Shown here piece by piece: positions 51,281 to 58,353 of a DNA stretch of 64,000 nt (positions are counted from its first letter, which is position 1; every line of letters begins with the position of its first letter). The position numbers and the translations under genes are program-made. Location: the sequence record PZ295659.1; one strand, given 5' to 3'. Under the pieces are notes generated by a model, which was given only the letters and a program-made list of their open reading frames with translations, was not told the DNA's origin and ran no database searches. Origin of the DNA: a phage.

Positions 51281-51586
51281 TTATTTTCCTCGACATTCTT
51301 TAATGAAATTTTCTAGATTGGTAGATTCAATAGCTTTTTTACGAGCTTCTGCGTGTTCTTCTTCAGACAATTTACATTTATAATTGACCCAGACATTATG
51401 GTCGAAACTAGTCGTGGCATATAATAACAATGCTCCGACGAATAATAAAAACGGTGATAAGAATACAAAACCGGGAACACCATCCATATCGTAAGCCTTT
51501 TGTAATACTGCAACAGAAAGGGCTGCGTAAAAAGGTGATGCAAATATTGTTAAAAGACCAATTCGGTTGGTTTCGCCTAATTTCAT
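51281..51586 (-). CDS. membrane protein with C-terminal FIKECR motif
   Basis: 101 aa, two TM helices, C-terminus ...ENFIKECRGK whose codons contain the SD of the next gene. Confidence 0.5.
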   Translation of the reverse strand: MKLGETNRIGLLTIFASPFYAALSVAVLQKAYDMDGVPGFVFLSPFLLFVGALLLYATTSFDHNVWVNYKCKLSEEEHAEARKKAIESTNLENFIKECRGK

Positions 51587-51656: not shown

Positions 51657-52613
51657 TTATTTGAAAGGTTTCACCATATGAAAATTTTCTTTAAACCGTT
51701 TGATGTAATCATCATGTCCTAAGCTTTGGTACATACTTACTACTTTGCTGTAGTTTTCCCAGGCGTATTCACGGAACCAACCGGAGGTGATGCTTGTACA
51801 GACTTTTTCCAATGCCATCATGAAACTGGCTTCAGGATTAATTTTAAAGTCATTAGGAATCTGAGAACGTTCTAATGCTAGTACACATGATTCTTCATAT
51901 ACACCGGCCAATTTGACCATTTCTGGTAAAGATTCGAACTTCTCGCGTGAGGTCATGACTTCAGAACCGTCTTTCATATAAAATGTATATGCTGGACGGT
52001 CTGTTAGTGCAATGGCTTCATGAATAGTATCATGGTCATATGTATAGATGTCATCTTTAAAGAACGCACTTTTAGAAGTGTCAAGAACTGGGTGAGCATA
52101 GTTCAAGGTTTCTTTCTGGCGTTTCAGCATAATTTCAGTAAGTTCATCGTTCAGTGTAACACCTTTACCACGAAGATACTGAATATGGTTCATAGTCTTT
52201 AAAAAGAATGGATTATTTTTCTTGAAACGATGAGACATCTTAATTGCAAGACATATCTCAGGAGTTGCCCAGTAAAACCCGTTCAAACGGTCTTTAGTCA
52301 AATTTTTCTTGGCGTATTTTAAAAGGTCATAAGAAGACGTGAAATCTTCAGGAGTGAGTTCACCGACTAATTCACGGACATTAGTGATTGCCGGAACAAT
52401 ATATGCTTCAAAATGAGTTTCGCGTCCATTATGGAAGCATTTGAAAACTTGGACATCAGGGTTATCTTGATGAACATATACACCCATCATTTGATTTTTG
52501 AACACATTCCAAGAACATTGGTCCGCAATAAAGTCCCAATCACTATTTTTGATAGCACTAGAATCAATAAGACCGTGATAGTGAAGTGCACGAGAACCAA
52601 TAACTAACATCAT
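51657..52613 (-). CDS. nucleotidyltransferase-fold-like protein
   Basis: 318 aa; N-terminal MMLVIGSRALHYHGLIDSSAIKNSDWDF resembles the GS...DxD start of 38319..39308. Confidence 0.45.
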   Translation of the reverse strand: MMLVIGSRALHYHGLIDSSAIKNSDWDFIADQCSWNVFKNQMMGVYVHQDNPDVQVFKCFHNGRETHFEAYIVPAITNVRELVGELTPEDFTSSYDLLKYAKKNLTKDRLNGFYWATPEICLAIKMSHRFKKNNPFFLKTMNHIQYLRGKGVTLNDELTEIMLKRQKETLNYAHPVLDTSKSAFFKDDIYTYDHDTIHEAIALTDRPAYTFYMKDGSEVMTSREKFESLPEMVKLAGVYEESCVLALERSQIPNDFKINPEASFMMALEKVCTSITSGWFREYAWENYSKVVSMYQSLGHDDYIKRFKENFHMVKPFK

Positions 52614-52641: not shown

Positions 52642-52893
52642 TTAAATTTCACGACATGCGGTATCATATTCATCCCAGAGGTCATCGTGTGAAGCCTCTA
52701 CCAATGGAACGATTGTACCATTTATATCTTCATTATAAGGACAAATTGTACAATGTGCATCTTCGAATCGGATGCCTTTGTGTTCAGATTTTTTATAACG
52801 CATATCGAATATCTTTGCAAACTTTTCACGAGTAATGGTTTTAGCAACCACTTCGGTTCTAATACTTTCGTAATAAATCATTGTGGGCTCCAT
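52642..52893 (-). CDS. hypothetical protein
   Basis: 83-aa ORF. Confidence 0.45.
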   Translation of the reverse strand: MEPTMIYYESIRTEVVAKTITREKFAKIFDMRYKKSEHKGIRFEDAHCTICPYNEDINGTIVPLVEASHDDLWDEYDTACREI

Positions 52894-52944: not shown

Positions 52945-53142
52945 TTAGCAAGAATAACTAGATGATACCCAGCCTTGAACAGTAATACTATTATTTGATA
53001 CCGAGATTGCGTTCTGGAGATTCAGACCTGCGTTATCTTCAATCCATAATGTAACTTCTTCGCGTTCTTCTGTTGCAATTTGGAACAGGTTTTCCAGGGC
53101 AGCTACTGCCGTACGTACAGCACAATCTAATTCACGAGACAT
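52945..53142 (-). CDS. small protein, C-terminal WxSSxxC family (member 1)
   Basis: 65 aa ending QGWVSSSYSC. Confidence 0.45.
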   Translation of the reverse strand: MSRELDCAVRTAVAALENLFQIATEEREEVTLWIEDNAGLNLQNAISVSNNSITVQGWVSSSYSC

Positions 53143-53151
53143 ATGATTTCC

Positions 53152-53424
53152 TTAACAAGTGTGAGAAGATGCAATCCAACCACCGGTTTCGAGGCTTAGG
53201 TTGTAGTCGTATTGGTAAACGTCAGCCCATTCAGCATAGCCGTTTTTTGTACAACGTTCAAGGTCGGCTTTAAGCTGTCCGGGTGAATGATAGGTTCCAC
53301 CCATACCATAAGCTGGATACAAGTCGAATGTTGTGTTTTGTTTATCAGCAATTTCTTTGGCGGCCTCAATAGCTGCATAGATTTTTGCTACAGCTTCAGC
53401 CAGTTCGGTTTGTTCTTTAGACAT
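53152..53424 (-). CDS. small protein, C-terminal WxSSxxC family (member 2)
   Basis: 90 aa ending GGWIASSHTC. Confidence 0.45.
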   Translation of the reverse strand: MSKEQTELAEAVAKIYAAIEAAKEIADKQNTTFDLYPAYGMGGTYHSPGQLKADLERCTKNGYAEWADVYQYDYNLSLETGGWIASSHTC

Positions 53425-53433
53425 AGTGATTCC

Positions 53434-53739
53434 TTAGCACAACGCAGAAGACGAAACCCAAGCACCTTCAGTAATAACGTAACCATTACCTTCACGCTTA
53501 ACATCGCCACCATTATTTTCAATTTCATTTTTCATCCACTGGGATACGATTTCACCCTTAGGATAATAAGTACGACCGCTACCATAATCACCTACAGAAA
53601 ATGATACGGCATATTGGTCTGCGATCTTTGTTGCTTCTTCTTCGATACGTTCAGCTTGATTCAGAAGTTTATAAATTGCATCTGAAGCGGATTTGGCATC
53701 ATTAAACTCTGGTACTTTAATTTCAATAATCTTACTCAT
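53434..53739 (-). CDS. small protein, C-terminal WxSSxxC family (member 3)
   Basis: 101 aa ending GAWVSSSALC; internal similarity to member 2. Confidence 0.45.
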   Translation of the reverse strand: MSKIIEIKVPEFNDAKSASDAIYKLLNQAERIEEEATKIADQYAVSFSVGDYGSGRTYYPKGEIVSQWMKNEIENNGGDVKREGNGYVITEGAWVSSSALC

Positions 53740-54095
53740 TTTCTACATTCCTTAATAAAGTTTTTGATTGTTTCATTTTCACGTCTAGATAAGAGTTCAT
53801 TATAACTAATCATTTGAGAAGCGTAAACCTTTTTATTTTTCTTGTTATGGTTTATAAAATCGTAGTAAAAATAGACTACAGTACAAAATGATGCGATGGA
53901 TGCAAAGGCTTGGGTATACCGTAAGTCCTGCCATTGGTCTGTGAATCCACCAGTGTTCCCTATAAATCCTAACACAACGCCGTCAATAAGAAATCCAACT
54001 AATCCAAAGGCAAATCCCATGCCAATACTCATAATAAAAATTAGAATGTTCTCACCAAGAGAAGGCCATACGGTTAAGAGTTCAGGCTTTTGCAT
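53736..54095 (-). CDS. membrane protein with C-terminal FIKECR motif
   Basis: 119 aa, TM helices, ends NFIKECRK. Confidence 0.5.
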   Translation of the reverse strand: MQKPELLTVWPSLGENILIFIMSIGMGFAFGLVGFLIDGVVLGFIGNTGGFTDQWQDLRYTQAFASIASFCTVVYFYYDFINHNKKNKKVYASQMISYNELLSRRENETIKNFIKECRK

Positions 54096-54469
54096 CTTAT
54101 CTCCTTAACGAATTCCATGGCTTCTTCATATTCATACTTTTTAACAGCTTCATCATACTGAGCTTGGGCTTTTGCGCACTGAACTTTCCATTCTCTTAAT
54201 CGGGCTCTGTGATGACGGCCTTGGTACCAATATCCCACCCAGTTAATAGGCATTAATAAAAACGGTACAATAAGTGGTGCGACGAACATTAATGAAAATG
54301 CTGCATCAGACGATATAACTTCACTAGAATCTAAAACAGCTCCTATAATCATAAAGATTAAAAATGCTAAAGCTAAAATAGGGCCAAATAGTACTTCGTT
54401 TGGGATTAATTTACGTTTGTATTCATACGCCCAGGGCTTAATTGGCATGTATAGGGTTGGCTTTGACAT
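54074..54469 (-). CDS. membrane protein with C-terminal FVKEIR motif
   Basis: Track ORF trimmed to ATG 54469 (MSKPTLYMP...); ends ...EFVKEIRCKSLNS. Confidence 0.5.
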   Translation of the reverse strand: MSKPTLYMPIKPWAYEYKRKLIPNEVLFGPILALAFLIFMIIGAVLDSSEVISSDAAFSLMFVAPLIVPFLLMPINWVGYWYQGRHHRARLREWKVQCAKAQAQYDEAVKKYEYEEAMEFVKEIRCKSLNS

Positions 54470-55034
54470 ATTCTCTACATTCCATAATAAATTGCTCAAG
54501 GATTAAATTGTTAGTGAAATTAGGACTAACAACCATGGTTTCATAAAGCGCATCAATAGCACTTAAAGCATCAACTCTTTTAAGCAAAGGCTTGCCTTCA
54601 TACATAGTTTCAGAATCGACGATTAACGTAAAGTAATATTTTTTATTATTGACCAGAACTTCTGTATCAATATAAAACATGTTAGATCTTAAAAGCTTGT
54701 CTCTAAAACCATAATAATCTTCAGAGCGTTCGCTGATATATTCCCATTCAGTGTTTAAACAACAAACAGACCACGTAGGAGCAACGAAATCAGTGAATCT
54801 AATATCATGGTCTGCAACTAGTTTAGCAATAGCTCCGATATCATGAATCATAATACCTGGGGCTAATAAAGATTTTCGGTTATTTGCATATTCAGTTGTC
54901 TCATAAGAAGACGACCAGTACCATTTACGTCCAGTTGCAACATATCGTAATGAATCAACTAAAGACGTAGGTGGATTTACCTTATTTCGGAACTCTTCGA
55001 ACATTGAGTCAATATCATTATTTTGGTTTCGCAT
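54438..55034 (-). CDS. hypothetical protein with C-terminal FIMECR motif
   Basis: Track ORF starts at TTG; ATG 55034 with AAGGA SD preferred. Confidence 0.5.
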   Translation of the reverse strand: MRNQNNDIDSMFEEFRNKVNPPTSLVDSLRYVATGRKWYWSSSYETTEYANNRKSLLAPGIMIHDIGAIAKLVADHDIRFTDFVAPTWSVCCLNTEWEYISERSEDYYGFRDKLLRSNMFYIDTEVLVNNKKYYFTLIVDSETMYEGKPLLKRVDALSAIDALYETMVVSPNFTNNLILEQFIMECREYVKANPIHAN

Positions 55035-55051
55035 GTTAACTCCTTTATTAT

Positions 55052-55075
55052 CCAAAAGGAGGACCGGAGTCCTCC
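55052..55075 (-). terminator. hairpin terminator
   Basis: ggaggac-cgga-gtcctcc; U4 follows on minus strand. Confidence 0.45.
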
Positions 55076-58196: not shown

Positions 58197-58273
<77 letters not shown>

Positions 58274-58279
58274 AATATA

Positions 58280-58353
58280 TGACCCAGACCAGATTCGAAC
58301 TGGTAACCTTTCCCTTATGAGGGGACTGCTGCTAACCGTTGAGCTACAGGGCC
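58280..58353 (-). tRNA. tRNA with anticodon CAU (Ile2 or Met)
   Basis: Acceptor GGCCCTG/CTGGGTC (one U-U mismatch), T-arm ACCAG-TTCGAAT-CTGGT, anticodon loop CTCATAA; D-stem weak. Confidence 0.5.

Follow-up and report, generated by a model that had tools for sequence, protein, structure and literature searches.

Nucleotidyltransferases (NTases) of the MenT/AbiEii type are encoded downstream of small partner genes, and the NTase MntA AMPylates its partner protein HepT. MenT enzymes extend the 3' ends of tRNAs and can be blocked by a short protein, MenA1 (PMC10435456). The phage sequence record PZ295659.1, analysed here as a stretch of 64,000 nucleotides (the window), contains a locus that recalls these systems. 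Three consecutive small genes on its minus strand, called A, B and C in what follows (52945 to 53739), encode proteins that end exactly on a cysteine, and a gene located ~330 bp downstream of A (51657..52613, minus strand) encodes a 318-residue protein made up of DUF7277 and DUF7275, a polymerase beta-type NTase with a MenT-like fold that is the candidate partner enzyme. The original prediction for this DNA, which was made from the window alone, flagged the three genes and their shared ending, but it missed their conserved context, namely that the family is large, that its tail is invariant and that a MenT-like NTase is its near-obligate neighbour. We consider that the small proteins are functionally coupled to the NTase with a probability of roughly 80%. 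At that same level of confidence, the finding is larger than the one initially flagged and corresponds to a widespread and uncharacterised phage module in which small Cys-tailed acidic proteins are coupled to a toxin-like NTase.

Linkage of the cysteine-tailed genes to the DUF7277/DUF7275 gene

The association between both types of genes was studied from each of its two sides. From the side of the small proteins, the NTase gene was found on the same strand within ~700 bp in all the loci with downstream sequence (17/17); the loci comprise 13 viral contigs retrieved with a degenerate DNA pattern for YGMGGTYYP and those known earlier, and three further loci, cut off downstream, are not counted. 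Three distant members of the family encoded on metagenomic phage contigs have a DUF7277/DUF7275 gene just downstream in each case. From the side of the NTase, 80 viral loci were collected by homology to the 318-residue protein and 73 of them show one to five tail genes that lie upstream of the NTase gene and share its strand. Among the other seven, two carry variant tails (WVQSSC and WDSSTC, both directly followed by the stop codon), which raises the count to ~75/80. The same arrangement is found in Phapecoctavirus nepoznato (three copies), Otagovirus phiPsa374 and Acinetobacter phage DLP3. Some loci depart from it in their details: the tail gene of Stenotrophomonas phage Bhz51 is just downstream of the NTase gene, Pseudoalteromonas phage H101 has a variant tail (WYESRC before the stop) upstream of the NTase and, in loci L005/L006, the two halves of a split NTase, DUF7275 and DUF7277, are encoded by separate genes on opposite strands, on either side of three tail genes. 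A linkage that is conserved across such distant phages and even through the split of the NTase is hard to explain without a direct functional dependence. Members of the NTase family occur in 734 of 50,697 phage records; cellular genomes almost lack them, with only 5 contigs from metagenome-assembled genomes among 185,579 species representatives. The module is present in more than 700 sequenced phages, including T4-like, rV5-like, Otagovirus and jumbo phages.

The window belongs to an RB69/HX01-like T4-type phage of the genus Mosigvirus and is 97.8% identical to Escherichia phage HX01. In annotated relatives, this region is located between e.2-like and e.3-like accessory genes, in an early/middle transcription block of the minus strand. 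The three genes are all encoded on this strand: C (53434..53739, 101 residues) is the orthologue of RB69ORF139c, B (53152..53424, 90 residues) the orthologue of RB69ORF137c, both of them belonging to phrog_899, and A (52945..53142, 65 residues) is the orthologue of RB69ORF136c and belongs to phrog_4882. They are separated from each other by 9 nt, and a TAAGGAA Shine-Dalgarno sequence that overlaps the preceding stop codon lies 6-8 nt ahead of the ATG of each gene. The triplet is kept at 95-99% DNA identity across 131 phage records, and B was matched by tblastn in 282 phage records. A promoter-like site (53799..53827, minus strand), identified by a consensus match only, is located upstream of C within the e.3-like gene; in the annotation of the relative SA35RD, a T4 middle-promoter-like site occupies the equivalent position. 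The first 80,000 bases of T4, including the syntenic junction where e.2 abuts e.3, contain neither tail genes nor the NTase. The T4 gene tk.1 (locus L117, 10346-10549) has a weak match of 14.9 bits to the hairpin region of the small-protein family (...LSFEISSEYGDAETYY...) and is devoid of the Cys tail; it may be a remnant or a chance match.

Other genes surround the triplet. An open reading frame (ORF) of 83 residues (52642..52893, minus strand, phrog_3723) is found between the triplet and the NTase gene. It is not a member of the tail family and was found only in T4-like relatives. The acidic protein that it encodes ends in ...LWDEYDTACREI, where a Trp and a Cys are also 7 residues apart, without the Ser-Ser pair and with a Cys that is not terminal; this protein may be a degenerate relative of the tail family or unrelated to it. 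The e.2/e.3/e.4/e.5-like neighbours (51281-51586, 53736-54095, 54074-54499 and 54438-55055, all on the minus strand), several of which have predicted membrane helices, end in a common motif of their own (...NFIKECRGK, ...NFIKECRK, ...FVKEIRCKSLNS and ...FIMECREYVK...). Similar endings (FIETCKNENK, FIKYCRGK and FIENCKNEK) were observed in genes that precede the Cys-tail arrays at the T4-like loci L003, L031 and L039. The four e.2/e.3/e.4/e.5-like proteins seem to form another family of paralogs whose hallmark is a C-terminal motif.

The small proteins and their C-terminal tail

The proteins A, B and C respectively end in QGWVSSSYSC, GGWIASSHTC and GAWVSSSALC, so that the three adjacent genes closing exactly on a Cys were found as originally described. 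The segments that code for the last eight residues and the stop are 52945..52971 in A (W-V-S-S-S-Y-S-C), 53152..53178 in B (W-I-A-S-S-H-T-C) and 53434..53460 in C (W-V-S-S-S-A-L-C), all on the minus strand. This ending is exclusive to them, well beyond what chance would give: A, B and C are the only ones to end in Cys among the 196 ORFs of at least 55 residues that start with ATG (all six frames of the window considered), and no other ORF of the window has the W..SS..C ending before its stop. The tail is equally distinctive in the rest of the family. Among the 195 small members (<200 residues), 180 end in Cys and several others carry one residue past it. In these 180 proteins, Trp(-8), Ser(-5), Ser(-4) and Cys(-1) are each invariant (180/180), Gly(-10) is present in 128 and the spacing from Trp to Cys is always 7. 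The resulting consensus is G-x-W-[VILMQ]-[SAP]-S-S-x-x-Cys-COOH, and the three proteins of the window fit it. The terminal Cys is the sole Cys of the protein in 89/195 members. Across 174 different tails collected from related loci, the invariant Ser residues use all six Ser codons, TCN as well as AGY (23-25% AGY), and three different stop codons were found after the tails. The use of both Ser codon boxes indicates that the tail is constrained at the level of the protein and not at that of the DNA.

The same tail, or a near variant of it, closes different protein bodies that are encoded in arrays of one to five genes. The variants seen in related loci are WYPSSC, WQSSSC, WESSSC, WNSSDC, WYSSHC and WQASASSC. 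The bodies comprise the YGMGGTYYP type, the 65-residue A type, a type of ~73 residues with an internal DWQSSxCYGEG copy in addition to a terminal W-x-SSSC, and longer forms of 140-175 residues; at least three of the body types have only the tail in common. Extra internal W-x-[SD]-[SD] copies are present in 30/195 members (e.g. 'WESSSEGWESSSEGWVSSSSQC'). Judging from these sequences, the tail is a portable module. Lipidation of the terminal Cys, one of the roles initially evoked for this residue, is unlikely: the Cys is at position -1 instead of the -4 of CaaX boxes, there is neither a signal peptide nor a lipobox, and the proteins are acidic and of cytoplasmic type. To our knowledge, no bacterial system for the lipidation of a C-terminal Cys has been described.

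The relationship among the three proteins is less uniform than their tails. B and C share 29% identity over 73 residues (BLASTP, E 9e-7). Both match phrog_899 at E 1e-18 to 1e-22 as well as, along their full length, a hidden Markov model (HMM) built from ~140 family representatives from which the close relatives of the window proteins had been left out (74 bits for B and 80 bits for C). The IAD...G.Y motif that had been noticed in both of them is real and corresponds to the family core IADxxxxxF...YG(M/S)G(G/R)TY(Y/H); the full core reads IADExxvxF-x-F...YG(M/S)G(G/R)TYYP, and the family profile has an N-terminal helix of the form ...EAExIADE.... By contrast, BLASTP only aligned A to B and C through one 16-residue match and one weak 39-residue alignment that ends in the tail (E 1e-4 and 8e-4). 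Against the HMM of the main family, A scores 13.5 bits on the tail only, with no full-length match. When profiles are compared, the A subfamily and the main family align over no more than their 16 C-terminal residues (hhalign probability 93.6%, E 2e-7), and nothing significant was left once the tail was trimmed (hhalign E 0.035); the N-terminal helices of both groups are aligned at equivalent positions by hhalign. The prediction of a triplet of paralogs thus stands for B and C and falls for A, whose comparison with the main family revealed no significant similarity beyond the tail. On the basis of these comparisons, B and C are true paralogs and A, given that its similarity to the main family is restricted to the tail, is a tail-sharer and not a demonstrable full-length paralog. 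The A subfamily is well conserved in its own right, since its members keep a length of 65-70 residues and the tail in Mosigvirus, Dhakavirus-like, Klebsiella/Enterobacter and Yersinia phages. Two orthologues of these genes are interrupted: RB69ORF139c (P0002) is cut by a frameshift to 71 residues and the orthologue of B in phage mar005P1 (P0193) to 75 residues, both diverging before the tail. These frameshifts suggest that individual copies are dispensable in the laboratory, which is compatible with accessory functions in host takeover or in countering host defences, although they could also be sequencing errors in the RB69 reference and in mar005P1.

A HMMER search of 1.84 billion cluster representatives retrieved 177 family proteins at E ≤ 1e-3, nearly all of them 70-120 residues long. 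The family therefore contains at least 177 clusters at 50% identity, a lower bound to which a word-indexed search added more. Some profile matches of 738-3668 residues were discarded as spurious, because the three that were checked are surface proteins with Ig/PKD repeats matched over the hairpin region only. All the named matches are phage proteins annotated as 'hypothetical protein', none of them with a Pfam domain. A, B and C have no match in Pfam, NCBIfam or PADLOC, and in PHROGs they only match families of 'unknown function'. A sequence search of the PDB with C returned nothing meaningful; its predicted fold has no match in the PDB either, and a Foldseek search of BFVD found uncharacterised family members only. 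No paper was found on the small-protein family, the RB69 ORF names, DUF7275 or DUF7277. The family is strongly acidic (mean net charge of -8), and the isoelectric points of A, B and C range from 4.1 to 4.7. The AlphaFold2 model of C has a mean predicted local distance difference test (pLDDT) score of 90.7 and displays a long N-terminal helix, a YG-x-G-x-TYYP hairpin and a small sheet that carries the Trp in its last strand. In this model, SSSALC forms a terminal helical turn, with a pLDDT of 87 for residues 91-100 and of 63 for the terminal Cys.

The 318-residue nucleotidyltransferase

The only Pfam matches of the 318-residue protein at E ≤ 1 are DUF7275 and DUF7277. An alignment of 26 sequences, whose members are 47-76% identical to the window protein, revealed the invariant residues G6, S7, D25, D27 and E69, that is, the hG[GS]...DxD...[DE] signature of the pol-beta-type NTases, so that the catalytic motif (GS...DxD...E) is intact. 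The fold matches point in the same direction: the list (match values in brackets) is headed by the MenT1 toxin (10.1) and continues with ANT(2'') (8.5), TglT/MenT3 (8.4), TM1012 (7.5), MenT4 (7.5), the JHP933-like NTase of H. pylori (7.1) and LnuA (7.1). At the sequence level, the protein does not match the DUF1814/AbiEii family (PF08843) or the AbiE models of PADLOC, nor the Pfam families of RlaP (PF10127) and of the CCA-adding enzymes (PF01743), and a sequence search of the PDB gave no match. It represents a new branch of NTases, specific to phages and MenT-like in fold.

The DUF7275 half of the protein (residues 120-318) has its own set of invariant residues: H128, R129, H174, D193-H194-D195, H198, E240, E241, E248, R249 and C272. 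They include the motifs SHRFKK, Y-D-H-D-x-I-H at 192-198, EE at 240-241 and ER at 248-249. This half has no significant match in the PDB and, because of its own invariant set, the sequence suggests that it may hold a second active or binding site. Residue 272 is a Cys in every locus with tail genes, and an Ile or a Phe in 4 distant homologues without them, a correlation that provides weak support for the coupling. Cys243 was also considered as a residue that could co-vary with the tail genes, but this candidate was rejected, as the position is occupied by Tyr in 18 loci that have them.

The neighbourhoods of the NTase contain several other genes. In the window, tRNA-Arg(TCT) and tRNA-Met(CAT) genes (58197-58353, minus strand) are located ~5.6 kb from the NTase gene, upstream in the direction of minus-strand transcription. 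A distant homologue adjoins an RNA ligase in Streptomyces phage TunaTartare (L024), and others adjoin tRNA clusters in Gordonia phage Aphelion (L023) and Rhodococcus phage NiceHouse (L111). These tRNA and RNA ligase neighbours hint at an RNA or tRNA substrate of the NTase. In Acinetobacter phage DLP3 (L022, 4183-4497), a putative ADP-ribosyltransferase gene lies two genes downstream of the NTase.

Possible modes of action and comparison with known systems

Several scenarios may explain the coupling. In the one that we favor, A, B and C would be an array of tail-tagged small acidic proteins working with the NTase encoded just downstream, and the invariant tail would be the element that this enzyme recognises. 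The tail could enter the active site of the NTase, where Ser(-5), Ser(-4) or the terminal Cys would receive a nucleotidyl or phosphoryl group; in this way, a single NTase might act early in infection on a range of diversified small effectors, which it would mark or switch. By analogy with characterised NTases, the tail may tentatively be seen as a handle for the enzyme, possibly modified by it, a proposal to which we give less than even odds. The covalent modification of the tail, as opposed to a non-covalent regulation, is suggested with the same reserve; this version is preferred because the same residues are invariant across unrelated bodies, which looks chemical rather than merely structural. 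Since MenT-type NTases can phosphorylate Ser/Thr residues placed in their own active site (PMC11375011), the phosphorylation of the tail is chemically plausible. In its most developed form, this scenario would describe a new protein-tagging system in which the NTase nucleotidylylates or phosphorylates a portable C-terminal tag (W-x-x-S-S-x-x-Cys-COOH) on small acidic effectors. This extended version is rather unlikely; if true, a whole set of proteins for host takeover or anti-defence would be armed, switched or targeted through tagging by one NTase.

A number of observations weigh against the favored scenario. In this phage, the 83-residue ORF sits between the triplet and the NTase gene; SA35RD was annotated with a terminator between the A orthologue and this ORF, and a promoter-like site is also present in the gap that separates the triplet from the NTase. 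There is no tail gene at the T4-like locus L046 or in the marine group L066-68 and L092, despite their NTase homologue, and distant NTase homologues without tail genes exist in Gordonia, Streptomyces, Rhodococcus, Brevibacillus, Curvibacter and Vibrio phages. As tail-less homologues (L046, L066-68, L092 and those of actinophages and Bacillus-type phages) retain the catalytic residues, the NTase appears to have a function that is independent of the small proteins. The correlation of C272 with the tail genes is confounded by phylogeny. Moreover, since in the model of C the Trp belongs to the last beta-strand and SSSALC to a short helix at the end, the tail may be a packed structural element and not a free docking peptide. 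Finally, the upstream position of the small genes and their acidic charge fit an antitoxin-like inhibitor equally well.

This last point leads to the main alternative, according to which the small proteins would regulate the NTase in a non-covalent manner, either as antitoxin-like inhibitors that keep a potentially toxic enzyme in check or as specificity adaptors that dock via the tail. In the adaptor form, the variable bodies would steer the NTase to different targets, and the tail may be a pseudosubstrate that mimics an RNA 3' end. The order of the genes, with one or more small genes followed by the NTase on the same strand and with tight spacing, is that of abiEi-abiEii and menA-menT; the NTase fold matches that of the MenT toxins, MenT1 is inhibited by the short protein MenA1 (PMC10435456), the small proteins are strongly acidic, and a constant tail on variable bodies would suit an adaptor. 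Nevertheless, the predicted partial packing of the tail into the fold, the NTase homologues that keep their catalytic residues without tail genes, and the separation of the triplet from the NTase by the 83-residue ORF here and by the annotated terminator in a relative also weigh against this reading, which we hold as doubtful.

A second alternative is that the small proteins act as independent effectors directed at the host, with a tail that would capture a host target or a metal, or take part in redox or disulfide chemistry via its Cys; metal binding and disulfide linkage were already proposed in the original prediction. That the genes lie close to that of the NTase would in this case be due to a common regulation or pathway (e.g. 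tRNA or translation takeover), and not to direct contact. The position of the genes, flanked by e.2- and e.3-like genes within the early/middle accessory region, is congruent with this possibility, as are the small size and acidity that they share with many phage anti-host proteins, the apparent dispensability of the copies frameshifted in RB69 and mar005P1, and the presence of two W-x-S-S-x-C motifs in some members, whose Cys could pair. Yet, 89/195 members have a single Cys, no host motif or partner was identified, and the near-obligate linkage to the NTase is maintained across T4-like, rV5-like, Otagovirus and jumbo phages and survives the split and rearrangement of the NTase gene. Independent effectors thus seem unlikely.

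The small proteins could also be precursors of ribosomally synthesised and post-translationally modified peptides (RiPPs), the Ser-Ser-x-x-Cys end of which would be cross-linked in a lanthionine- or aminovinylcysteine (AviCys)-like manner or processed to a peptide. Arrays of diversified precursors with one constant segment recall the prochlorosin-type loci, and an S-x-x-C placed at the very C-terminal end is reminiscent of the ring pattern found in AviCys peptides. Nevertheless, a compact globular alpha/beta domain with the tail inside the fold is predicted for C (pLDDT of 90.7), the neighbourhoods read contain no dehydratase, cyclase, flavin decarboxylase, radical-SAM enzyme, protease or exporter, and the sole conserved neighbour is a pol-beta-type NTase. 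This very improbable reading was rejected on account of the globular predicted fold and the lack of RiPP enzymes in those neighbourhoods. As for spurious ORFs, or an ending imposed by a DNA signal (each TAA stop overlaps the TAAGGA Shine-Dalgarno sequence of the next gene), their probability is negligible given that only three of 196 ORFs end in Cys, that the HMM scores reach 74-80 bits with a confident AlphaFold2 model, that hundreds of homologues keep the invariant W/S/S/C with varied codons and different stop codons, and that this codon diversity rules out a DNA-level origin of the tail.

If the coupling is real, large virulent phages, among them RB69 (a tractable phage of E. coli) and its relatives, would share a widespread two-component module that has so far escaped study and that could reveal a new protein modification or a new regulation of tRNA- or RNA-directed NTases. 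It would also offer a functional handle on at least four families known only as hypothetical (phrog_899, phrog_4882, DUF7275 and DUF7277). The tail is among the most strictly conserved C-terminal motifs that we have seen in the phage 'dark matter'.

Ubiquitin-like/ThiS/MoaD tags, microcin C and AviCys RiPPs also display an exactly placed and invariant C-terminal residue on which a neighbouring enzyme acts. However, those tags end in Gly-Gly or Asn, consist of beta-grasp domains or short peptides, and depend on E1-like, LanD or other enzymes, whereas here the end is a Cys, the body an orphan alpha/beta domain and the neighbour a pol-beta NTase. A ubiquitin-like or sulfur carrier was consequently rejected, as the fold, the ending and the neighbouring enzyme are all wrong for it. 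RNA-repair NTases such as RlaP and the CCA-adding enzymes have been described for jumbo phages (PMC7824862). They resemble the 318-residue protein in being pol-beta NTases of large phages that also encode tRNAs, but they are not known to come with Cys-tailed small proteins.

The closest likenesses are found among the NTases with protein partners. The proposed chemistry has a precedent in the HepT-MntA (HEPN/MNT) type VII toxin-antitoxin system, where a minimal NTase reportedly AMPylates its partner (Songailiene et al. 2020 and Yao et al. 2020 are said to describe it): in both cases, a pol-beta-fold NTase is encoded beside a small protein that it nucleotidylylates or, here, may nucleotidylylate. 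The acceptor in HepT-MntA is a Tyr in a HEPN RNase toxin, while the candidate acceptors here are Ser or Cys residues in the tail of non-HEPN fold-orphans. As for MenA-MenT and AbiEi-AbiEii, the 318-residue protein does not belong to these systems at the sequence level, and the small proteins have no sequence or structural similarity to the known antitoxins of NTase toxins. Compared with MenT/AbiEii, the phage NTase has an extra conserved C-terminal half (DUF7275) with an invariant His/Asp/Glu/Arg set; compared with the MenA/AbiEi antitoxins, its partners come in arrays of one to five with an invariant C-terminal tail; and, unlike MenA-MenT and AbiE, the module is restricted to lytic phages. 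No counterpart has been described for the partner family, for its tail or for the organisation in arrays; the theme of an NTase with a small partner protein is known. If the coupling is confirmed, this NTase-partner biology (MenAT, AbiE and HepT-MntA) would be extended from bacterial defence and toxin-antitoxin systems to the side of the phages.

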